A stretch of DNA of 57,427 bases, filler included, from Basidiobolus ranarum (taxonomy: Eukaryota), in NCBI GenBank assembly GCA_040143965.1. It is 5 parts of 5 records of this genome, joined end to end, with 100 filler letters (N's around TTAATTAATTAA, not from the genome) between each part and the next. Parts side by side here need not be neighbours in the genome. Positions count along the whole stretch, not along the records: positions 23,038 to 34,446 come from JASJQH010007491.1; 4 more parts are not named here. One strand, 5' to 3'. The first letter of the stretch is position 1. Every line of letters begins with the position of its first letter. The notes under the pieces were generated by a model. The model worked only from the letters and a program-made list of their open reading frames with translations. It was not told the DNA's origin and did no database searches. Below, one piece after another: positions 8,445 through 51,725 of the stretch. Both the position numbers and the translations under genes were made by a program.

Positions 8445-10163
8445 TTAAATAGTAATGGATTTCTTTGAAGTCAATAGGTTCTTTGGATCCGAGCGAACCT
8501 CATTAGTGCGGAATTGAAGTTCAGCTGTCCATTCACCGGTGGCTTGCTTCTTAGGCACAGTAAACTTGTACTTATTAGTGTATTGTATCTGTTTCTTTCC
8601 ATTCTTAAACCAGTTGAGGGTATATTTCTCATTGTTAATGCGTTTTTCACGTAGATGAGCAAGTTTGATAGGGACCAAGCTTATTTCAACCTTCTTGCCG
8701 TTCTGGTCAGGAGTGAATTTGAGCTCATCAATAAGTGACACACGAGAAAGGAATTTCTCCCAGAGTCCTTCCTTACAAGGAGCACAGAATTGCTCAGAGG
8801 ACATATCACGCATTAAGCAGCGTTCGTTGGTGGGGCGGTAAGTTTTACGCTTTTGATAATCGAAAGTAGGGTATGCGTTGATGTAATTATTATCCCAGTG
8901 GTATTCTGATTCTTTACCATATTCATGTAGAGTAATGGAGCACAGTTGTCGAATTGGTGCACCAGGTTGGGGGGCCACACCAGATTTGAAAACTAAAGTA
9001 TGATTACCAGCACTTAAAGTATTCTTATCGTCAAACCAAGTGTAGAAGCTACGATCCAGAATTCCTGATGTCTTCCATGGAAGGCGCTTTCCATCAAGGT
9101 AAGCCTCAAAGGAATCTGGTACTTCAGCTCCGGAAACACTGAGCTTCATGAACCAACGGTTATATTTTCCATCAGAAGTGAAAGAAACGTTATAGGGGCC
9201 CTTGGCAAGATCATACCACGCATAATTCTGAACTCTTTGGACGTTGCGTTGCTCCTTAAGTGGACCTGTGAGCCATTTCTTCCAAGTAATTTTATCCAAT
9301 GAAGGTGCTGAGTTTACACCGTCGTAAACTTGACCACCATCATACTCTTCACCAACATCATTGAAACTGTGTCCCATTTCGTGACGGAGAACAACAGTAC
9401 CAGACGTGGGGGAGCGAGTTGAGATAACGAACTCACCGCCTAAACCACCATAGTAATCATCGTTACCGATTAAACTAGGGAAATCACATTGGTAAGGCTT
9501 CAAGGCATTGCAAGCAGCACGAGCCTCATCCTCCTTGGCAGGATAAATACCTCTTAACTCAGTACCATCGCGATAAAGGCCGAATGGTGTATTCTTTGGC
9601 TTACCGCCTACACCAATTCCTGAATCAACTGATGGTCTGAAGAGACCCCATATGTTGAAGAGAGGAAGGTATGAGGCAAAAGTGTTTCCGGTAAACATGT
9701 CGTGAGTCAATCTCGTCATGTCATCAATAAAACGTTGCTTCTCCGCCTCCTGATATCCATCTCCCATGAATACAACATCAATACGATTAGCTGGATCACC
9801 ACTCTGGTCAATGGGGATAAGTTCATCGGCTACAGCTCTGGCTACAAGTTTTTTTGGTGCTTCAACAACATCGGAGCAATACTCGTTAAGTCTGTTACGG
9901 ACCACGTCTGGATTCTGGCCAATAAGTTCCAAAATGCGACCACTATGAGTAGGGGCTAGTCCATGATGGTCGACTTTCTGTGGGCGTTCCTCAACGAACA
10001 CGTCATTAGAATCGGTCAATGAACGCATTTGTTGTGTGGCTCCCTCGCGGAGGATTTGGCAGGAATTGCCATCACGAGAAGCCAAGATGTGATGTGAAGA
10101 GGGGAAATTGGCAGCAGCAAAGGAGAATAAACTCAGTAATGCCAGGGAAGAAGTTGCTCTCAT
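8445..10163 (-). CDS. Secreted peptidase family M64 (IgA-peptidase-like) zinc metalloprotease
   Basis: 572-aa intronless ORF with an N-terminal signal peptide, NRIDVVFMGDGY, the zinc motif HEMGHSF..GEEY, and RPT..CLMR..FCAPC. Confidence 0.88.
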   Translation of the reverse strand: MRATSSLALLSLFSFAAANFPSSHHILASRDGNSCQILREGATQQMRSLTDSNDVFVEERPQKVDHHGLAPTHSGRILELIGQNPDVVRNRLNEYCSDVVEAPKKLVARAVADELIPIDQSGDPANRIDVVFMGDGYQEAEKQRFIDDMTRLTHDMFTGNTFASYLPLFNIWGLFRPSVDSGIGVGGKPKNTPFGLYRDGTELRGIYPAKEDEARAACNALKPYQCDFPSLIGNDDYYGGLGGEFVISTRSPTSGTVVLRHEMGHSFNDVGEEYDGGQVYDGVNSAPSLDKITWKKWLTGPLKEQRNVQRVQNYAWYDLAKGPYNVSFTSDGKYNRWFMKLSVSGAEVPDSFEAYLDGKRLPWKTSGILDRSFYTWFDDKNTLSAGNHTLVFKSGVAPQPGAPIRQLCSITLHEYGKESEYHWDNNYINAYPTFDYQKRKTYRPTNERCLMRDMSSEQFCAPCKEGLWEKFLSRVSLIDELKFTPDQNGKKVEISLVPIKLAHLREKRINNEKYTLNWFKNGKKQIQYTNKYKFTVPKKQATGEWTAELQFRTNEVRSDPKNLLTSKKSITI

Positions 10164-10205
10164 GGTTACTTCAATATCTGAGGTTGAGAGTAGGCTCTCA
10201 TGGGT

Positions 10206-10213
10206 TATTTATA
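10206..10213 (-). promoter_or_regulatory. TATA box upstream of the M64 peptidase
   Basis: TATAAATA on the minus strand about 45 nt upstream of the ATG. The same 8-mer precedes several other genes in the window. Confidence 0.5.
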
Positions 10214-11421: not shown

Positions 11422-11521
11422 NNNNNNNNNNNNNNNNNNNNNNNNNNNNNNNNNNNNNNNNNNNNTTAATTAATTAANNNNNNNNNNNNNNNNNNNNNNN
11501 NNNNNNNNNNNNNNNNNNNNN
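11422..11521. other. Artificial contig linker (N + TTAATTAATTAA + N)
   Basis: 100-nt N run with a six-frame-stop spacer, identical at four sites. Confidence 0.97.
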
Positions 11522-22937: not shown

Positions 22938-23037
22938 NNNNNNNNNNNNNNNNNNNNNNNNNNNNNNNNNNNNNNNNNNNNTTAATTAATTAANNNNNNN
23001 NNNNNNNNNNNNNNNNNNNNNNNNNNNNNNNNNNNNN
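22938..23037. other. Artificial contig linker
   Basis: N run containing TTAATTAATTAA. Confidence 0.97.
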
Positions 23038-24491
23038 TTATCTTATAATTCACTAAGATATTATCAATTATTCTCAATCAGAATTTACTTAGAGTATTTT
23101 TACTAACTTAGAAGTTCTCAGATATATAGATTTCTCAAACTTGTGCTAGAAGCCCCAAACTTTGCACACATGTTCCTGGGACCTTCTTTAACATATTCTA
23201 CAGGTTAGTTTTTTTACATCCTGACAGAACTATAAATGTCAACTTTCTACTCAATAAATCAATAAGTGAAAACCACCAATTCCTCTAATTCTCCAAACCA
23301 CTTCCAATAGGCTCCCAAATACTTTAACAAAATCAGTCTAAATTTGATCCAAAGAGTAAGAAATACATATTTCTGGGTTATTGTAATCAAATCAAGGCCT
23401 ACTGACTCTATGATACCAAAGTTTCAAAGTTAATCAAGTCCAGGGATGCTTTGTTTAAAGAAATTGAAAGATTTCCACCTAAAATGATCTCAGATAATGA
23501 TAAAATCAATTTTCTCCCAATCCAATTATTCAAATTGATTCAAATTAAACAATGAAATGAATAATATTCCTGTGGCCCTATCAACCAAAGTTCAACCTAC
23601 TGAAGTGCCCAGTACAAAGAATCATGACACTGTGCCTAAAATGCACATATTCTGGATGAAACTTTGATCTGATGGGATATTCAGATGCAAATTGGGGGAG
23701 ATACTAAAGACAGGAGATCTATAACATGATACTTTTTTCTTTGCTGTACTAGAGCTATTTCTAGGAGTTCAAGGAGGCTACCTACTGTAGCACTTTCAAT
23801 AACAGAAGCAGAATACATGGCTGCCTATGGAGCAACAAAAGAATCAATATGTTTAAGAATACTCTTAACAGATTTAGGCTATTCTCATAATTCAACAACC
23901 ACAATATTTCCAGATAATTAAAGTTGTATGAAATTAGCTAAAAATTGCATGTTTCATAATAGAAGCAAACATTTAGATACTAGACATTGTTTCATTACAG
24001 AAACTATAGAGAATTAGTTAATTGACTTAACTAATTGTTCTACAGAAGATGTGATGGCTGATACATTTGCCAAACCATCAGCCAGACAGAAATTTGAGAA
24101 ATTTAGACCTTGCTTGGGATTAGTTTGTATAATTATTTAGTTCAGAGAGTGTTGGATTAGCATTGCTTAAGCAACTATATAGTCATATATAGCTTAGTAT
24201 TTAGCTATCTAATACTTCACTAAGATATTACTCATTATTCTCAATAGGGGTTTACTTGATACATTTTTACCACCTTAGAAGTTCTCAGATATATAGATTT
24301 TTCAAACTTGTGCTAGAAGCCCCAAGCTTGGCACACATATTCCTGGGACCTCTCTTAACACATTCCACACCTTAGTTTGTTTACATCTTGACAAAACTAT
24401 AAATGTCAACTTTCTACTAAATAAATCAATACTCTGACCAAATCCAACTTGCAAGAAGCTATCATTGGTTGGCCTATCAGGTCAACCTACA
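23038..24491 (+). mobile_element. Degenerate, internally deleted Ty1/copia LTR retrotransposon
   Basis: Imperfect direct repeats at about 23038-23264 and 24205-24431. Post-integrase segment KFDPKSKKYIFLGYC..KAY*LYD..KSRDALFKE (~23340-23465). Copia RNase H GYSDANW..TVALSITEAEYMA..FHNRSKHLD..ADTFAKP (~23675-24130). Purine tract AGAGAG precedes a 3' LTR running TGTTGG (24150) to CCTACA (24491). Confidence 0.92.
24150..24491 (+). repeat. 3' LTR of the copia element
   Basis: TG..CA ends, upstream purine tract, and about 225 bp shared with 23038-23264. Confidence 0.8.
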
Positions 24492-26944
24492 GTATTCGCT
24501 GGTATCTCAACAATATCAAAAGCTAGAAGATGTTCTTAGAAAGGGAATTGCCTATAACACTAGCTTCAACAAGTATTAATTAATTATGTGTAGTATCATT
24601 CCAACCAGGTTGAATATTGCAAATTTTGGACACTCATAGGGCTAAGAGCATGGGAACCCTAGTAAATTACAGGTTTTCCAGGTAACTACTGCACTATTAA
24701 CAAACATAGCATGTATATCAAACACCAAGTTTTGATAATTGGCGAGATTGAGGAAACCTAGTTTTTCTAAAACTTCTACTATATATATCAGGATTAATAT
24801 ATGCACGCGGAGGAGTACATTCTCAATACCCACTGCCTTATTTCTATACTGAGATAACTTTGTTTACAATAAATACAGAAACAAACATTTTGTCTAAGAT
24901 GAGGTCATGTATATACAGTATCGCCAATCTAAATAATCCTACAGTACTTTGTTATAAAATTGATTTGTGACAAATTTCTCCACTCAACTAAAAATATATC
25001 TAGTGACACAAGCCAAGATATCCTTGGAAAGCGTACAATCTACATGCAACATTAATATTGATTAATGACGAATATACTTCCTCTACTACAATTAGGTTTT
25101 ATCTACAATCTGACACTAATAATACTGTAACTGAACTATTAAGCACGTATTCAAGATTCATTAGAATGCTTTTAGTTGATTAGCAGAAATAAGTGATTTA
25201 TATAGCCAATAACTACTTGTGAATGCCGAAAAATAGCAACCGAAGTATTAAGGACTGTAGAGGAAATATTTGGGGAGAAAATTTTATCTTTTCTCAGTAT
25301 GTTTGAGATACTTTCAGGTGTATGTCACGATTCTCACTTTTCACTAGATGTATAATATATTATGTGAATATTTGGATGCTTAACTCTAATACTTCAGCAA
25401 CTATACCAATATAAACACTGAGGTATTGACTTGCATACATATAATACTGCATTAAATATAGGATTGTAATTCCTACGATACTGTGTTTGCAAATGCAAAC
25501 ACTAACCCTAAAGCAACAGCCTATTATTGTTTGTGCATCCGAAATTGGTCATTTGTTTTGATCATCAATAATCGGTAGAGTCAGCAAAGTGCTTAATACT
25601 GCTTATTTAAATAACTCAACAAGGCTTAATAGGTATACTAGGTCATCTGAGCTATTCTAATAAGATATCGATCTATTCAGTTTTTTTGAGATATTTCTTT
25701 TTCCGCTGCAGTTCCTAACTATTTCCGCCTTTTATTTAAACATTTCCACAATAGTCCAAATGTAGTTCTTTACATTAAATAGACTACCAACTTAAGCTAA
25801 GAATCACGTGAATATAGATGTACAACATGCAATATCTCGATGTCAGACAATCAATTTCTAATGGGTTTTTCCAGATTACAGATAGTGAGTGCTAAATTAT
25901 AGGTAGTTTGGCTATAGAGTAACGCAAATCAACATTCACCAGTGGTCAACACCCCCCACCAAACGCCTCTCACTCAATTCGGAAATCTATATAAGATTGA
26001 TCCACTTACTGTACTTGCTTTTCCCAATCACAGATTACCTCCAGTACTACCAACCGTCACCAATCAATTTCCTGGAGAAATTGACATGCACTGCCTAAAC
26101 TACCTAAATCGCTTAAACTACCTATGCAACCGACAAAAGAAATCAGCCCAACATTACGATAGTTTACAAAACAAAGCTCATCTTTCTCTATTGTATTGGG
26201 TGTTCAAGTAATATTTGAAGCATTTCATAGAGACAATAAAAGAACACCCTGAGGGAAACCCTGGGGGGGAACCCTTGTGATCTCTAAATGAAAGCGAAAT
26301 GAAAATTCATCTAATTGATACAATAATGAATACTTGTCATCCTTTTCCTCAATTCTCCTCGTTCCTTGTCCACCATTGTTTCCGGTAATAAAAGTTGCGA
26401 ATTTGGAATGTTTCCGTGTATGAGTAACGGTTGAAATGGAGCGATTCGCCAATTCGTTACATTTACATTCACTTGTTACGTTATATATAGCACTGTATAC
26501 CTACACGCATCTCACCTACACGCATCTCTACCTGTTATTTGTTAACCAGATTCTAATGGAGATCAGGATCACTTGATTCGATCATCGGATCTGCTCTTCC
26601 TCCGTACTGTGTACCAATTAAGCGTGTGATTGCTGGTCAAAATCAAACATTGCTGCTCAAAGTGGAAGCAGAAAAAAAGTGCCACTCCAATGACATCAAG
26701 AAGAAATATTAGGATTAGCTAGGAAACTAGAGGTGAATCTCAAGTAGAAGAGGATATTTATTTGCAGACGAAGCTAGAACACAATTGGTACAACACTGGA
26801 ATAATCGGGCGGAAATCGTATCGTTCCTCATCGTCTCTATATTGTGTTACCAAAACTGTGCTACAACTCATACTTGTGTTACTTGGAGAACTAATAAATA
26901 CTCAACTATTTCGTCACTTTCCCAACATTACAAATCACTTCAGC

Positions 26945-28093
26945 ATGCGTGGATTTAATAGCATTTGGATCTCACTGGCCGTTACTGCTACCGCAGTCAT
27001 CGCTCACAGTAACTCTAAAGTGGTCGAAATTGGTCCAAGTTATAACGTTTTGACCGAGCCTTTCTCTAGAGAAGTAGGTGAACCCTTCTCTAAAACCCAA
27101 GTTGGTTCTCAATCACTGGAAAATATTGGAGAAGCTGCTTTCATCGTATACAACAAGAAGTTCTACGACATCATCGGCACTAAGCCTAATCTTACTGTTG
27201 TTGCTGAGAAAGATTTCTCTTTCGCTCATGAAGCTGGTATCTACGTCGCGAAAACCAACGAAATCATATTCACTAGTAACCGTTTAGGAGATACCTCTGG
27301 TACCGAGCAATACGTCGACATCTTCAAAATGAACGTCGACACTTATGAAGTTAGCAAAGTCTCACCAAAATCAGAAATCTACCTTGCCAATGGCGGTACC
27401 TTCTACGATGGTAAGGCTATCATCGTTGGCCAAGGTAAAGGTAGCCACGGCTCAGCTATCTACTCTGTTGATCCAGTTACCTATGAAACCAAGGTCATCT
27501 TGAATAACTTCTTCGGACTCAAATTCAACTCCATGAACGATGTTGTCGTTTCACGTAAAGATGGCTCATTCTGGTTTACTGATCCCTCGTACGGACATGA
27601 ACAGAAATTCCGTGATCAACCTCAGTTGGGTGATTTTGTTTATCGTTGGGATCCTAAGACTGGTGATGTTCGTTTGGCGGCCGATGGATTTGTCAAGCCT
27701 AATGGCATCCAATTCTCTCCTGACGAAAACATCGCTTATATCTCTGACACTGGCTTCACCACTGGGGTTGGCGAAACTGATGTTAAGAGACCCCACACTG
27801 TCTATGCTTTCGATGTCTCTCGTAAGAACGGTTCCGCTTTCCTTACCAACCGCAGAGTATTTGCCATGAGTGATACCGGAATTCCCGATGGTATTAAACT
27901 TGATGTCAGAGGTAATGTGTATGTTGGCTCTGGTGATGGTGTGAACGTCTATTCTCCCCAAGGAGTACTTCTTGGAAAGATCAACACAGTTCGTTGCGCT
28001 AATCTAGTATTCGCCAAGAAAGATCTTTTCATTTTATCCGAAACCCAAATTTACCACGCAAAGTTGAACGTCGAAGGAGTGAAACTTAATTAA
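26945..28093 (+). CDS. Secreted SMP-30/gluconolactonase (lactonohydrolase) beta-propeller
   Basis: Signal peptide MRGFNSIWISLAVTATAVIA, then FAHEAG, ANGGT, FNSMNDVV, WFTDPSYG, KPNGIQFSPD and GIPDGIKLD. Confidence 0.92.
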   Translation: MRGFNSIWISLAVTATAVIAHSNSKVVEIGPSYNVLTEPFSREVGEPFSKTQVGSQSLENIGEAAFIVYNKKFYDIIGTKPNLTVVAEKDFSFAHEAGIYVAKTNEIIFTSNRLGDTSGTEQYVDIFKMNVDTYEVSKVSPKSEIYLANGGTFYDGKAIIVGQGKGSHGSAIYSVDPVTYETKVILNNFFGLKFNSMNDVVVSRKDGSFWFTDPSYGHEQKFRDQPQLGDFVYRWDPKTGDVRLAADGFVKPNGIQFSPDENIAYISDTGFTTGVGETDVKRPHTVYAFDVSRKNGSAFLTNRRVFAMSDTGIPDGIKLDVRGNVYVGSGDGVNVYSPQGVLLGKINTVRCANLVFAKKDLFILSETQIYHAKLNVEGVKLN

Positions 28094-28718
28094 GTGATAA
28101 ATCCATTTCACTGGTTGAACTGATTATTTTTGGTATAGATTACTTGTAATATTATTTACGCTAATAAAATCTTATTTACACCAATTTAATTTGGCCACAT
28201 CAACTGAGTTCCTCTTTCTATATTTGGAATATAGCTTTGCAGTGACTGGGCCAATGGGTTCGTTAGGGTTTGGGTTGAAGTGACACAAGAAAAGATCTTT
28301 CGAACAATTCCAACACCTGACCCGAACTACGGATGGTTACACGGCAGTCGGGTTCGTCGTTTCATATTAGGCATGTTGGGGCACTAAGATCTTGACCAGC
28401 CGAACTTAGTTTTAGCTTGAAATGAGAATGATAGTGTGGGAACAAGAGCAGGTATAGTAGCGGGTCTTTATTAAATGGAGATTAAGCAATACAGTAATGA
28501 AGAGACAGTAACAGTGGGGTAGTTGCGGGAACAGGGGGAAATACAGTAAGTGGATGTCAACAAGAACAATAATAATGAATAATATCGCGTATTCACAAAC
28601 CCCATCGCTTGCTACTCTATAATACACTTTAGTACCCGGGTATTGGTGACACAGCTATGGCATGCGGAATATTTAGTTTGTTTGGGGTGTTACATACAAT
28701 TATGGCCATGGAATATAT

Positions 28719-29663
28719 TTATGGATCCAGTCCTCTGTTGGGTTGAAATCTCGTGTTGAGTAGAACGAGAGGGACCTCGCCATTTTCGTCCGATGTTTTG
28801 CTGTTAGGAGATGCATGGAATATTTCTTGATGATATTTGGACGGATTGCGTGATCCACTTTCATCATGTTCTCTGTGAGTGGTTTCATCGTAGTGGTTGT
28901 CGGCAGTCCATCTAAATGAGTTCCCATGAGGGGCACACAATCTAGTCAAGAAGTAAGGCAGACACACCATCAAGAAATTGATCGTCAAATCTACCATGGA
29001 TAACAGTGGTGCATACTGCTCCAGAGGCGTTATTAATGACAGATTGAAGAACATATTAAAAGTGATGGCTATCGAATTGGTAACGAAAAGATTCCGTGCA
29101 ACAAAGACTAGTTGTGAGTTTTGCTCTGCCTTAGATTTCAGGCATTGTCGAACGAACGGTGCCAAGAACATGCACATCATGTAAACTGACAGGATAAAGG
29201 CGGTCACTAATGGAAGAAGAGACGAGATTCGGGGATGTACCACACTACATGAGCCATTCGGTGCGATTTGCGTTTCATTTAGCACAATACTCATGGGAAT
29301 ACCAGCTGCGTAAACAACGCCCACTATCGCAGGAAAGAGCAAAGACCAGGTGCCTCCATATACCTCTTTGTAGCGTACCATATAATAAACGAACTGTAGA
29401 GAGTTGCTTCCATGGTAGAAAAACACCGAGAGATTCTCAGCAACTCCACAGTGGTTGTCTTGTGAGCCACCGTTCATTTGAACTATTTTAACTTGAGCAT
29501 AGACACAATTGAATAACGCTACAAAGTATAGAATACGATGGGACATGATTCCTGAAGTACGCCATCCTCTGATGAACGCAAAAGAAGCAGCGACAACCAA
29601 TGTCAGTCCAAGGCATATTCCCACTACATAGTGAGCTATGGGGATAAATATACCATCTGCCAT
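28719..29663 (-). CDS. Seven-transmembrane GPCR-like protein
   Basis: About seven hydrophobic segments, Cys at the top of TM3 (DNHC) and in loop 2 (NGSC), VRY at the end of TM3, and a polar C-terminal tail. Confidence 0.7.
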   Translation of the reverse strand: MADGIFIPIAHYVVGICLGLTLVVAASFAFIRGWRTSGIMSHRILYFVALFNCVYAQVKIVQMNGGSQDNHCGVAENLSVFFYHGSNSLQFVYYMVRYKEVYGGTWSLLFPAIVGVVYAAGIPMSIVLNETQIAPNGSCSVVHPRISSLLPLVTAFILSVYMMCMFLAPFVRQCLKSKAEQNSQLVFVARNLFVTNSIAITFNMFFNLSLITPLEQYAPLLSMVDLTINFLMVCLPYFLTRLCAPHGNSFRWTADNHYDETTHREHDESGSRNPSKYHQEIFHASPNSKTSDENGEVPLVLLNTRFQPNRGLDP

Positions 29664-31055
29664 ATGATCTGAGGTTAGGGTGAAAGTATAGAAACTAACT
29701 GTCGAAGTAAAGGGTGGGTGTGGATTCTATAAAGCACAAAATTATGATAGCCAGCAAGATGAGCTATTATATAAATGGCTCAATGTGACACAGCAAAGTG
29801 AGAAAAATCACCGGATAATTATGTCATATTTATATCGTACCACTATTATAATATATACTGATAGTCGAGCTTATCGTATTTGTCACACGATCTTTAATTA
29901 AACCAGTTTAACAAATCCTAACCCTCACTTTAGTTCTATTATTCTACCTACCCTAACCCTAGCCCTAGATAACATGCAACTCTACTGAAACATATACAAG
30001 CCACTGTGGACATTCCTTTAAGACAGATGAAAAACAGTACTTGTGAAGAAGGGCTCTATATGGTCAAGGAAGTTCATCTACGGTTACGGCTACTAACACG
30101 AACACTTAGTACAGTTTCACCCCAGTTATGAATATAATAATGGGGCTTACAATTCATTTGTTCCCAAACAGTCTCGTTAACGTAGATTGAGATAATGTGC
30201 AATGATTTGCTTAGCTACCATGCTAGTGATTACATGCGAGTGGTTACTCAATTATCTCGCGCTTTTAAGGGTCTTTGATAGACGTATCAGATGGCTCAAT
30301 ATTGTCAAGTTAAGTTATCAGCTACCCAAGCGCAACAGGACAAGGAGTCCGATACATGATTCCGATACTCTTTATAGCACGTGGAGTTTACTTATAGGAT
30401 TACAGACTTCTTAATATATTTTCGTAATAAATTTCGCCCCAAACATCAGGTATGTTGTCCAACACGGCTATACAGTACGGCGCACTGGTACACTTTGTTT
30501 CATCCAATGCGAGCCTCTGTTTGGATCTACAAACCTCCTTCGCAGATTATCCGGCTCAATTCGGTTTAGTCAATCGCAGGTGGCTGCAAACAGGATTCCG
30601 ATTTACGGTAAGACCTGGTCTTTATGGCAACTGCTGGTTAGGGCTTACCTTTGGGTTGGCTCATCTACTGGATATTGATACGATTGATGCTAGTTTTTGT
30701 GAGTTAAGCAGTTATTTTGCTAATAACTGTTTAGCGCCAAAATATTTTGGTACCCATTCAAGTGCCCTAATCTTTTTTAGCTTAGTTGAATATGTGGGAG
30801 TCAATATCACCGAACATAGAACCATTTGACAATCCAAAGCGTTACAATGATGATGGAAGTATTTGAGTGGTAAAAGCGGCGTAGAGTTAATAAACATTTA
30901 TCCTATTTAGTTAAAAAGTAACTGAGAAGAATTAGGGTTGTTCTCAAAACTGCCATTAAATTCCTATATGCAGGGTACATAGCAAAATAACAAGTCCCTT
31001 CACCAGATCGGACTAAATTCGCTCATTAATATATATTGTAGTTCAATATAAAGTA

Positions 31056-31190
31056 CTAGTGAGTTTAGTCAGTTTCCAAGGACTAGTGCATTTAGTTAGT
31101 TTCCAAGTACAAGTAAGTTTAGCTAGTTTTCGAGTGCAAGTAAGTGTGCCAGTAAGTGTGCAAGTAAGTTTAGTTGGTTTTCAAGTGCAG
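31056..31190. repeat. Degenerate ~27-bp minisatellite (GTAAGTTTAGYYAGTTTYCAAGTGCAA-like)
   Basis: About four full units plus 12-bp sub-units are visible. Confidence 0.75.
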
Positions 31191-31837
31191 AGATTTTATC
31201 TTTCGTCCCAAAAACCTGTCAATATACACAACTTAATACTACTTTTAGTGTGCAACTAAGGTAGAATTGTCACTTATATATATTTGTATACCTCTTAGTG
31301 TGTAACTAAACAATAGGGTTATCACTGTACACTGTATAAATACTTGCTGCTGCCAGTCCCGCCACACACAAAGATAAGAAGTAGCACAATAAATTAACTA
31401 TGGAGATACTAATAGGAATGAAAGTCATACCATCGCAATCGCAATGATGAACAACACGTGGACTCTGAATGTCAACCAAGTCGCAACAATGTAACTTTAA
31501 TGAATCAGTAGAAGAGTTTACAGAGTTATAATGAATAAGAAATAAATGCCCTATTCATTATAACACCGTGACACCTTAACACCTTCATCGTGATCGTTCA
31601 ACGGTCCATGATCTCCAATATAGCAAATAAAGCGACGGAAAATTAGAACAGAATCAACACCTTTGAAACTTAGCTCTACGTTATCGCACAGTTTGCAAAC
31701 ACTACTCATTTTACAGTACACTTGGTAGTGAAACTGTCTTGTAACTCGCAAAATACGTAACAAGATATTGGAAACTAGCCTCGCATTTCTAATCTCGCAT
31801 ATCCGCTTACATATGAATTCAATCCCGAATTCAATCC

Positions 31838-31845
31838 TATAAATA
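31838..31845 (+). promoter_or_regulatory. TATA box upstream of the HAS-like gene
   Basis: TATAAATA about 115 nt upstream of the ATG at 31956. Confidence 0.45.
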
Positions 31846-31955
31846 GTGAACTCACAGATCATTATAAGACATCAATTATTTACAAGTATTAACAGCGAAC
31901 GTAGTGCACTCACCTTTAGAATTATTTACTCATTACCATTATAGCTAGCAATCCA

Positions 31956-33396
31956 ATGAATTCGGATCACGTCGACGTGAACTCCATGCTGCAAAAGATG
32001 CCTGCTGCGTCTGCAGCCCCCACTTCCACCCCAGTATCACTTACTAAGAAGTTGCTGTGGATCTCATCTGTACTGGCTGTATTATCGATGCCTTACTATA
32101 TCTCATTGCCAGCTTCAATTCAGACTTCCTTCCAACTGGGCTCTCGACAGATTTCCTTTTTCTATGCTATCCTTATGTTTACCAACATCTTTACTATCAT
32201 TACCTTCTCACTCAATCGTCGCACTGTCAATCGTCGTGTGCGCAATCGTGATCCCAATTGGGAAGGCATGACTACAGCAGTTCTTGCAGTAGGCTATAGA
32301 GAGGACCCCATACTTTTGGAGGGATGTCTCAAGTCACTCATAGCGTTGCGCTATCAACCTAATCGCAAGATTTTCTTAATTATTGACGGAGATGAGGAGC
32401 AAGACGAGTATATGGCTGAAATCTTTGAGCGAGTCTTCCAGTACCACAATCCCGTGGTACTCCGGCCCAAATTCTTGGTCGCTGATGTTGGGAAAGACCA
32501 TCCTTTGACACTAAAGCTAAATCAACAAATAGAGGAGGCCACTGGGCCCATTTGTATCTTACAACCTCATCGTGGAAAGCGTGCTGCTATGTACACCGGA
32601 TTTTCAGCTCTAATTCACAGTGGTATTGAGGCAGTTTTAGTCACCGATTCAGATACCTATTTAGATCCCGACTGTATTAAAGGTACATTCATTTCCAATT
32701 GATGATTATTTTATCTTCCCACTGCTAACCTGTTGTTCCATTCTTTTATTAGAGCTGGCTTTTTGTGTTTCTGAATCACCAAGGATAGGTGCTGCCACAG
32801 GTGATGTACGCATTTACAATACCGGCACCTGGATTAGCTTCCTATCTTCACTATGGTACTGGTTTGCATTCAACGTAGAACGTGGTTCGCAATCCTATCA
32901 TGAAGTAGTCAATTGTGTCAGTGGTCCCCTTGGCCTTTACCGAATGTCCGCCATCAGCGAAATCATGGACAAATGGATGCAACAGTCTTTTATGGGTGTG
33001 ATGTGTACCTATGGTGATGATCGTCATTTAACCAACCTTGTACTTCGCAGTGGTTTGAAAGTCAAATTTACACATCATGCAACGTGCTATACCGACACAC
33101 CCATCACATTTGTTGCTTGGTTTACACAACAAACTCGTTGGTCAAAGTCTTTCTTTAGAGAAATCCCCATCCAACTGGCCTGTATGCATCGTCATAGTCC
33201 CTACATGACCTTCGCTCTGATTTATCACTTGATGTATCCAATCTTCATGGTCTACGATATGGTCATGTGTATTTGCTTTGAGGAATTCACCCAAGTGATG
33301 TGGTGGGCTATTTGGATCTTTTCACTTGGAGCCGTGAAGGGACTCTTTGCCACCATACTCACCGGTGACTGTAGATTCTTTTTCCTACCAGTTTAA
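31956..33396 (+). pseudogene. Class I hyaluronan synthase-like GT2 gene (exons 31956-32682, 32753-33396), C-terminally truncated, probably non-functional copy
   Basis: Two N-terminal TMs, then GYREDP, IIDG, CILQPHRGKR, TDSDT, an intron with GCTAAC branch site, GDVRIYN, YWFAFNVERGSQS, CVSGPLGLYR, CTYGDDRHLTN and QQTRWSKSFFRE. It stops at RFFFLPV* without the last helix and WGT motif. Confidence 0.85.
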
Positions 33397-34446
33397 TGCT
33401 TGCCAATAACAAAGAGTATGTAACAAAACCATCATCTTCTTCATCAACTTAGGTTATATTACCATCAGTACCAGAATAATTGAGGTCAACATCTAGCAGA
33501 ATGTCCTCAAAGTTGTCTACACTCACTAGTTTGGTCAAAGTTGCATTTCTAACTATATCAGTCTGGTCATATAGCTGCAGCAACTTTATAGTATCTAGAC
33601 TTTTGGCAGTGTCTCCAAAACTTTGAGGCAATGCAAAGCTAGTGGACTCAGTGAGCAAAACAAGAGTCAGTTTTGTGCACTTATTACAATTGCTATTCAC
33701 CTAGCTTTGTGCAGCTGGTGGCTCTGTAGAGTGACTATGATTGTGATTATTCTTTCTGTGAAGTCACTGGCTTTCACCCTAACAGAAAATTGATAATCAT
33801 TACTGTAGGAAAACAGTCACAGTTTTAATCCATTTGGGATTGACCATTTCCACATCAATGTAAAATGATCAAATTTGATTTGATTTTCAATTTTTTCAGT
33901 TTCAGCTGTGAAGTTTCAAGATCTTACAAAATAGTTGCACAAGATTAGCTACAATCTCAGAGAAATATGGATAAATACATGTGCAAAAAGTGTAACTCAC
34001 ATCTTACACATTTACTACTTGAATGCTAATTTGTTATCTTCAATATATCTAGTTTCTTTGATATATTCTTTGCAATATTTTTATAGAGTTCTTCACACCT
34101 AAGGTTTTGCTCATAACCAACATGAGTTTGTATCAATAACTCCATCAAAGCCCACCATTGTATTAACATTCCTGATGCAGTATTCTTCCAGCTATCTGGC
34201 AGATACCCTGCTATATTATGCCACTCTGTATTAAGTTCTTCCCGGATATCTGCATGGCCAACACCAGACTGAATGCCCAGTTAAATGTTCTTCTTCTGAG
34301 GCCACTTTCTGCATACTTGCTTTGTATTTTTACCTTCATACTTTTGAACATACTCTGCAAGCACTTTGTCTATTTTATATGACCTTGTAGTGTGAAACTC
34401 CCAAGGGGCAAGTCGGCTGGTTTACTGGCAAAGGAGAATCCAGTAG
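33390..34446. mobile_element. Unclassified CpG-poor insertion (probable transposon relic) abutting the HAS-like gene
   Basis: Abrupt switch from CpG-containing coding DNA to about 1 kb with only ~2 CpG, with stop-riddled minus-strand frames. Family not recognised. Confidence 0.55.
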
Positions 34447-34546
34447 NNNNNNNNNNNNNNNNNNNNNNNNNNNNNNNNNNNNNNNNNNNNTTAATTAATT
34501 AANNNNNNNNNNNNNNNNNNNNNNNNNNNNNNNNNNNNNNNNNNNN
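34447..34546. other. Artificial contig linker
   Basis: N run containing TTAATTAATTAA. Confidence 0.97.
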
Positions 34547-45941: not shown

Positions 45942-46041
45942 NNNNNNNNNNNNNNNNNNNNNNNNNNNNNNNNNNNNNNNNNNNNTTAATTAATTAANNN
46001 NNNNNNNNNNNNNNNNNNNNNNNNNNNNNNNNNNNNNNNNN
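45942..46041. other. Artificial contig linker
   Basis: N run containing TTAATTAATTAA. Confidence 0.97.
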
Positions 46042-50793: not shown

Positions 50794-51725
50794 ATGAGAT
50801 TACTAATTCTTGAAGATTTCGACAAAGTCAGTTACCATGTTGGTAAGTTCAGTAATATTTTCGTTTTACCCTTTGCCATCGCTAACACATCCTACTTGCA
50901 GCCAACTATATAAAAAAACGTATAATTCAGTTCAATCCTTCCTCAGAACGCCCTTTTGTCCTAGGTCTTCCCTGCGGTTCCAGTCCTATTGGTGTTTATC
51001 GTTATCTGATTGAGTTTTGTCGTACCGGGCAACTCTCCTTCAAAAATGTCGTCACATTCAACATGGACGAGTATGTAGGTCTACCCAAAAATCATCCTGA
51101 AAGTTACCACACATTCATGTGGGTGCACTTGTTTCGTCACATCGATATACCTACAGAAAACGTCAACTTTTTGAACGGGAATGCTTCCAATCTAGATGAG
51201 GAGTGTCAAAGATATGAAGATAAGATTCGTTCAGTTGGTGGCATTGAACTCTTCTTGGGTGGAGTTGGACCCGATGGTCACCTGGGATTTAATGAGCCTG
51301 GATCATCCTTACACTCGCGGACTCGACCCAAAACTTTAGCATATGAAACTATTCTAGCGAATGCCCGATTCTTTGATGGTGATCTTGTTAAAGTGCCCAA
51401 ACTCGCTCTGACAGTCGGCGTGACGACAGTCATGTCCGCACGTGAGGTCTGCCTGATCATCACCGGGCAACACAAAGCCGTAGCGTTGGCGAAATGTATT
51501 GAAGAATGCGTTAATCATGTCTGGACAGTATCATGTATTCAACTACACCCTTCTGCTTTGATTGTTTGCGATGAAGATGCGACGCAAGAACTACATGTCA
51601 AGACAGTGAAGTATTTCAATAGTATTCAACAAGTCCAACAGCAGATCATCGGCCCCGAAAACATAGGCTTGAAGGGCTCCGTCAAAAGCTTCCACCCTAA
51701 TTGGCTAGATCGTGTTCATTATTGA
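50794..51725 (+). CDS. NAG1: Glucosamine-6-phosphate deaminase (NagB/GNPDA); intron 50843-50901
   Basis: [86 protein letters not shown]. Confidence 0.95.

Follow-up and report, generated by a model that had tools for sequence, protein, structure and literature searches.

The window analysed here is a 57,427-nt stretch of Basidiobolus ranarum DNA in which five unrelated contigs are joined by linkers (N44-TTAATTAATTAA-N44 at 11422-11521, 22938-23037, 34447-34546 and 45942-46041), so that genes on opposite sides of a linker are not neighbours. A putative hyaluronan synthase (HAS) gene lies on the plus strand of the contig G000:C7491 (window positions 23038-34446). Exon 1 (31956..32682) starts with an ATG at 31956 and encodes residues 1-242, which contain two N-terminal helices, GYRE (Y114, E116), HRGKR (H205, K208, R209) and DxD (D231, D233). 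It is followed by a 70-nt, phase 1 intron (32683..32752, +) of the form GT...CTAAC...TAG, with CTAAC as the branch site. The part of exon 2 present in the contig (32753..33395, +; 33396 if the stop is included) encodes residues 243-456 and carries IFH1, the priming loop (C297/G300), GDDR (residues 330-333; 33013..33024, +), QxxRW (368-372) and TMH3-4, with D332 of the GDDR motif aligning with the chlorovirus catalytic base D302. The original prediction of seven motifs and two N-terminal transmembrane helices was reproduced, coordinates included, in the 456-residue product of the two spliced exons: GYREDP starts at residue 113, CILQPHRGKR at 200, DSDT at 231, YWFAFNVER at 278, CVSGPLGLYR at 297, CTYGDDRHLTN at 327 and QQTRWSKSFFRE at 368, and hydrophobic segments span residues 33-51, 66-86 and 427-446. 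The NCBI model P0001 (B. ranarum K7432_009690, 442 aa) is identical to the window protein from Met15 onward; a paralog on contig C829 has a matching Met where the window gene starts.

That this is a fungal gene with genuine HAS-family features is clear, as the strength of the matches is far beyond chance. At E<0.001 the protein matches no PDB sequences other than Xenopus HAS1 and chlorovirus HAS, with exon 2 matching the former at E=3.6e-48 and exon 1 the latter at E=1.6e-25; exon 2 is closer to Xenopus (167 vs 143 bits) and exon 1 to the virus (93 vs 55 bits). The protein has the single GT2 domain of class I HAS with DxD, GDD, QxxRW and the UDP-binding Y/E/H/K residues, and hydropathy and alignment agree with a predicted six-helix channel fold. 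The chitin synthase hallmarks EDRxL and QRRRW are absent, as is a clade shared with those enzymes. A homolog search with exon 2 found 587 sequences, and the counts given below come from the 120 listed, which come for the most part from Mortierellaceae (about 60-71% over exon 2), with Endogone, Mucorales, chytrids and rumen fungi also represented, and which often bear the automatic database name 'Hyaluronan synthase 3'. Two of the motifs are less diagnostic than had been proposed. CILQPHRGKR does occur in chlorovirus HAS (L148), as proposed, but is no chlorovirus signature, since QPHxGKR is found in 101 of the 120 listed homologs; and GDDRHLTN, put forward as typical of chlorovirus HAS among others, reads GDDRRLTN in four of four chlorovirus enzymes. 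GDDRHLTN is also present in many uncharacterised prokaryotic GT2s, in a set selected by pattern that shows occurrence rather than frequency.

The B. ranarum genome holds several members of the family. We refer to the branch of six-helix class I HAS found in Basidiobolus, Mortierellaceae, Endogone, chytrids and Neocallimastigomycota as type A; its copies in this genome are the window gene and the C829 paralog, which are 71% identical. Type B copies lie on C7979 and C68, with partial copies on C3049 and C8472 and decayed ones on C4354, C7617 and C8146. The decayed copies (L006, L008, L009) carry stops, frameshifts and deletions, which indicates that the HAS family turns over in Basidiobolus. The type B 5' part on C8472 (L156) and the 3' part on C3049 (L005/L027) sit on separate contigs and are possibly one copy split by the assembly.

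To examine the active site and channel, we compared 22 functional positions on chlorovirus numbering (L148), with roles taken from the available portions of PMC11750622 and PMC12987647. Within its span, the window protein is identical to chlorovirus HAS at 21 of the 22, including R256 and the residues K177 and R341, described in the latter source as the UDP-GlcA pocket of the viral enzyme. Since NodC also has 16 of the 22, conservation at these positions discriminates poorly and is no proof of hyaluronan. The sole exception is chlorovirus R247 (Xenopus R287), which aligns with Trp277 of the window protein (codon TGG, 32854..32856, +) and is where the contrast between HAS (R) and NodC or chitin synthase (E) is sharpest. 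At this position 105 of the 120 listed homologs have Arg and 4 have Lys, while 8 are unreadable, so that 109 of 112 readable sequences have R or K; NodC (3/3) and chitin synthases (2/2) have Glu. Trp is found here in C829 (again TGG) and in Gamsiella as well. As to the two IFH1 arginines, the window copy and C829 keep the R296 equivalent (R286) and have lost the R287 equivalent (W277), while both are present in type B copies and most fungal homologs. Xenopus R287 adjoins GlcA-2 of the growing chain, and the R287A variant has a turnover of about 15% and makes short hyaluronan, according to the residue roles in the accessible text of PMC11750622 and PMC12987647. In Gamsiella (P0041, Mortierellaceae), the Arg-to-Trp change at this channel position appears to be independent.

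The gene is almost certainly resident in Basidiobolus. Its upstream 2.2 kb flank is single-copy, and its GC3 of 0.44-0.46 falls at the upper end of the nine other window genes (0.33-0.46). The intron has the same position and phase in the C829 paralog and in a Mortierellaceae-type metagenome locus (L167) that is 79% identical to a Podila protein. The original prediction had offered the intron and a TATA box as signs of residency; the intron holds up through the site shared with L167, but the TATAAA hexamer 118 nt upstream of the ATG (31838..31843, +), a possible core promoter, is weak evidence, as the hexamer occurs 72 times across the whole window. Compared with C829 over 440 codons, the gene has a dN/dS of 0.10 (95% CI 0.06-0.15) and a dS of about 1.8, indicating that it is old and under purifying selection. 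Upstream on the same contig, a multi-helix membrane protein with no Pfam match (28719..29663, -) has look-alike clusters that are all eukaryotic, one of them DUF7703, which points to a fungal context. The next gene (26945..28093, +) encodes an SMP-30/gluconolactonase family protein with paralogs of 85% and 70% elsewhere in the genome, and is given for context only. Contamination was considered and rejected on the single-copy flank, the eukaryotic neighbour, the host-like GC3 and the shared intron.

Several other features of the window were recorded. A repeat at the start of the synthase contig (23038-24431) is also found beside the paralogs C829 and C7979, and its C7979 copy lies near an ORF fragment that we take to be reverse-transcriptase-like. 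On other contigs, an intronless gene at 8445-10208 (-), possibly an old transfer, has a secreted product that includes an IgA peptidase M64 domain (E=3e-28), and a glucosamine-6-phosphate deaminase gene lies at 50886-51725 (+), on a different contig and hence unlinked to the synthase. The IgA peptidase M64 family is mainly bacterial.

The 3' end of the gene required closer attention. The window protein ends before the WGT gating loop, which is found in 109 of the 120 listed homologs, and is without the last two helices. An apparent TAA stop (33394..33396, +) is created by a join to repeat DNA, where homology to contig C2189 ends at 33395 and homology to the repeat begins at 33394, a 2-nt overlap. 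The repeat portion (33394..34407, no strand assigned) is the interior of a high-copy element, with 43 other places scored at 76-86% identity from 2904 candidates; C9590 carries a longer copy that codes for Transposase_21 (CACTA/En-Spm type). A genuine insertion of a transposon was rejected, as the join shows neither an element end nor a second junction. At the start of C2189, 107 of 111 nt match 33285-33395, and the frame then stays open for 143 more codons that encode the gating loop and two further helices; C829 likewise has WGT and two later hydrophobic segments, and in both an Arg stands five residues beyond WGT. In Mortierellaceae-type loci (L165, L166, L168), the gating loop is interrupted after WGT by a second intron, which is absent from C829 and C2189.

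We consider the gene-repeat join likely to be a misassembly, and the organism's gene is probably full length, with its 3' part on C2189. In run X1, a set of Logan contigs that may derive from the source of the assembly and in which rare variants are dropped, one 4237-nt contig spans 31500-33395 with a single difference and then continues with letters unlike those of the window, with depth on the gene side an even 13.6 as far as the join and the repeat sequence in a record of its own. A truly broken copy, in which a deletion or rearrangement into the CACTA interior has left a young pseudogene or dead allele with C2189 as the other allele, seems improbable. The join with its 2-nt overlap is present in the assembly, C2189 differs from the window at 4 of 111 nt (X1 has the window's letters there), the genome holds other decayed, stop-bearing copies of type B, and loss of the gating loop, which is needed for activity in both the Xenopus and chlorovirus enzymes, abolishes their activity (available text of PMC11750622), all of which would fit a dead copy. 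Against this, X1 is a single uninterrupted contig, with neither a gene-to-repeat bridge nor a second haplotype among the 8 pieces listed of some 2030; no contig in the genome assembly joins the repeat to a C2189-type 3' part; the join falls mid-element with no CACTA end; and the upstream frame is free of stops and frameshifts, with the low dN/dS given above. The extent of the X1 contig fits no repeat edge upstream or on C2189 and is neutral on C2189 as the continuation.

Phylogenetic analysis places the protein in the class I HAS family, an assignment we make with near certainty. In a FastTree of 293 rows, chitin synthases fall far outside on a long branch and NodC lies among prokaryotic GT2s. 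In an IQ-TREE analysis (LG+G4, no site mixture) of 51 rows hand-chosen from the 293, the window protein joins C829 (100/99), then Mortierellaceae (100/100), with Endogone next (100/99) and the chytrids after it (84/96). Type A and chordate HAS belong together in a group of 25 rows (94/94, not starred), and a clade of 35 rows that includes type A leaves out the chloroviruses (99/93). A clade of eukaryote and giant-virus HAS is split from NodC and prokaryotes (100/100). Streptococcal HasA and CPS1 are absent from both trees. The original prediction had proposed a tree as a check, and the result bears out its assignment to class I HAS of vertebrate/chlorovirus type: the window protein clusters with validated HAS, apart from NodC and chitin synthases, and a clade with NodC is rejected by the AU test (p=1e-4). 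Other AU results disfavour the clade with the chlorovirus group (p=0.023), Mortierellaceae with Endogone but without Basidiobolus (p=0.03) and all 27 named fungi together (p=0.014), and do not reject all sampled fungi with chordate-type HAS without viruses (p=0.058); as the groups were chosen with a tree already in view and the model lacks a site mixture, p values near 0.02-0.06 are soft. The chytrid Physocladia sits with chlorovirus-like sequences in FastTree and not in IQ-TREE, and we draw nothing from its placement. The pairing of Basidiobolus with Mortierellaceae conflicts with the species tree, which implies either hidden paralogy or an old transfer from one fungus to another.

The ancestry of the gene is very likely fungal and not recently viral, and the suggestion that it came by exchange with giant viruses finds no support in the identities to the window protein, which are 58-60% for Mortierellaceae and 33% for chlorovirus HAS, or in the disfavoured chlorovirus grouping. 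A recent entry into Basidiobolus from a giant virus is highly improbable: although 40 viral-contig loci encode relatives of 30-40% identity, and the failure of fungal members to form one clade (p=0.014) could be accounted for by ancient virus-mediated exchange, the closest relatives are fungal, the intron is common to a Mortierellaceae-type locus, the GC3 lies within the range of the window genes and the clade with chloroviruses is disfavoured at p=0.023. An ancient exchange at the base of the HAS family could still have taken place. Judged by its sequence, the window gene is a variant of class I HAS within an old, widespread fungal branch, and its product is a putative synthase. The 40 viral-contig loci were found with an alignment as query, while a scan of the same contigs with a single protein found no match. 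Many giant-virus contigs outside the chloroviruses (L028-L047, L058) carry genes for full-length HAS-like proteins that have WGT and, at the R247 position, Arg, at odds with a 2025 paper that places HAS in chloroviruses only, and one of these loci (L028) adjoins a glucosamine synthase gene. HAS-like genes on two contigs filed as Gammaproteobacteria (L068, L069) group with the eukaryote and giant-virus sequences and are possibly misbinned viral DNA.

The genome also holds candidates for precursor supply. A search for further paralogs and UDP-glucose dehydrogenase, as the original prediction had advised, turned up the other full-length HAS copies and two intact-looking dehydrogenase ORFs of 465 aa each, one matching a PDB entry at E=1e-202, so that the host is predicted to be able to make UDP-GlcA. 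The dehydrogenase genes are unlinked to the synthase genes, and no sugar-precursor gene was found beside the synthases at the window locus or on the five paralog contigs. Among the giant-virus loci, 1 of 40 has a nucleotide-sugar dehydrogenase (E<1e-8) within 4 kb; the prokaryotic scan gave a dehydrogenase match at the same threshold for 8 of 81 loci (seven of these, and L029, are tabulated). According to the accessible text of PMC11170279, GlcA occurs in the walls of Mucoromycota, B. meristosporus and Hypocreales, B. meristosporus being the only one of four Zoopagomycota examined in which it was detected. HAS-family members are present in all three groups (Mucoromycota, Basidiobolus and Hypocreales); the 120 listed homologs include no B. 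meristosporus type A protein, and a search with a B. meristosporus protein adds relatives from Ascomycota and Basidiomycota. UDP-GlcA has other described uses, among them mucoran and UDP-xylose, and the known uronic polymers of zygomycetes are mucoran and mucoric acid rather than hyaluronan in the available part of PMC6433966.

By homology to the vertebrate and chlorovirus enzymes, the protein would act as a processive GT2 synthase-translocase in the plasma membrane with a single active site. UDP-sugars would be bound through Y114, E116, H205, K208 and DxD, D332 would serve as the base, W372 would hold the acceptor, and the chain would exit through the enzyme's own channel, where the loss of one Arg to W277 would be expected to weaken the grip on an acidic chain. 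GT2 enzymes invert, and hence form beta linkages. We tentatively favour a polymer of GlcNAc and GlcA, either hyaluronan or short hyaluronan-like chains, as the likeliest product, at a little under an even chance, as the residues of the donor-GlcA pocket (K208, R371) are retained, and R286 likewise. The polymer could serve as a minor component of the wall or extracellular matrix. The host mimicry proposed originally finds no support and is not needed to explain it, as carriers include soil saprobes, chytrids and rumen fungi, most of them without a vertebrate host.

A less probable product, which we regard as unlikely, is a neutral, chitin-like beta-GlcNAc oligomer or polymer to which the Trp277 subfamily would have switched, leaving any uronic product to the Arg-bearing type B. 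The residue pattern at this position, Glu in all three NodC and both chitin synthases and R/K in 109 of 112 readable listed homologs, would suit such a switch, as would a Trp common to two copies at a dS of about 1.8 under purifying selection and recurring in Gamsiella; with three R-bearing type B loci in the genome, type A would be free to diverge, and HAS enzymes are able to make chitin oligomers according to the available text of the preprint 10.64898/2026.02.21.705424. However, K208, R371, R286, H205, F282, GDD and WGT are all HAS-like and not NodC-like, and Xenopus R287A still yields hyaluronan oligomers in the portions of the literature available. Quite improbable, in our assessment, is a different uronic polymer, namely poly-GlcA (mucoric acid) or a GlcA heteropolymer of zygomycete walls. 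Mucorales membranes contain a Mn-dependent UDP-GlcA transferase for polyuronides, with no gene named in the accessible part of PMC6433966, and chlorovirus HAS is described as able to add GlcA to cellobiose or chitobiose; yet the same viral enzyme is reported not to be primed by GlcA, and inversion by a GT2 to a beta linkage is set against a mucoran described as alpha-linked (PMC6433966, same portion). The presence of family members in all three groups with wall GlcA (PMC11170279) would also fit a uronic polymer, but this co-occurrence is loose, at the level of groups rather than species by species.

A literature search, with most subscription journals outside its reach, found no paper describing or assaying a vertebrate-type HAS family in fungi. 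In the portions available, reviews list HAS in vertebrates, amphioxus, chloroviruses, a few bacteria and Cryptococcus CPS1 (PMC10939387, PMC3581078, PMC12383584), fungal HAS appears in a 2026 survey as a CPS1-like type only (10.64898/2026.02.21.705424), and PMC11291939 makes no mention of hyaluronan. A second, vertebrate-like HAS family across fungi would make the origin of hyaluronan synthesis testable in easy organisms such as Mortierella and Mucor, would provide a candidate gene to account for otherwise unexplained glucuronic acid in walls, and would offer natural channel variants such as Trp277 for studying how HAS chooses its sugars and sets chain length. The single locus is smaller news, being one of several copies with relatives already labelled 'hyaluronan synthase' by similarity. 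A bolder and improbable scenario has an active six-helix HAS in the animal-fungal ancestor, at least two paralogous lines kept, many fungi making hyaluronan, and one Basidiobolus line rewired at the GlcA-gripping Arg towards a shorter or different polymer. Such an ancestor is allowed by the AU results for fungi with chordates (p=0.058) and fungi alone (p=0.014) and by the loose grouping of type A with chordate HAS and, if true, vertebrate-type HAS would be no chordate invention.

Among known systems, the vertebrate class I-NR set (Xenopus HAS1, PDB 8SMM/8SMN/8SMP; lamprey HAS3-like P0144; amphioxus P0127) shares with the window protein the GT2 core, GDDR, QxxRW, the IFH1 Y/F/R residues, the priming-loop Cys and a Lys equivalent to K448, and shares with the intact fungal copies a WGTxxR gating loop followed by two helices. 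Identity is only 31-35%, however, and the window protein has Trp at R287, HRGKR in place of WGGKR and no equivalent of H72. Chlorovirus HAS (PBCV-1-type L149; structure-type L148, PDB 7SP6/8SND) has CILQPHRGKR, GYREDP and the 21 of 22 shared positions, but differs in its 33% identity, in the Trp at R247 and in GDDRRL where the window protein has GDDRHL; its gene adjoins glucosamine synthase, whereas the window gene adjoins no sugar-precursor gene. Rhizobial NodC (L161-L163) shares the GT2 core and 16 of 22 positions, and its family TIGR04242 is the best NCBIfam match at 156 bits, below the cut-off of 550 bits and similar to the 151 bits of chlorovirus HAS; NodC is only 24-25% identical, has GED rather than GDD and Glu at R247, lacks WGT, and is rejected from a joint clade (p=1e-4). 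Fungal chitin synthases from the same genome (L010-L012) are likewise GT2 enzymes, and the window protein has a weak Chitin_synth_2 match (E=1e-8), but they are 21-22% identical, carry GEDR and QRRRW and are separated by a long branch. The Cryptococcus CPS1-type 'gamma-HAS' of the preprint 10.64898/2026.02.21.705424 is also a fungal processive GT2, reported in Mucoromycota and chytrids too. In the available text, that CPS1-seeded set has a three-helix pore and a disordered tail after the gating loop and stands apart from animal and viral HAS; Basidiobolus does not figure in its main text, and its Table S3 could include family members. None of the five CPS1-type signature motifs (WExL, RTAxY, FxxRW, WxxxP, GGVxT) is present in P0001 or P0002, and where the CPS1 type has its disordered tail, intact type A copies have hydrophobic helices after WGT.
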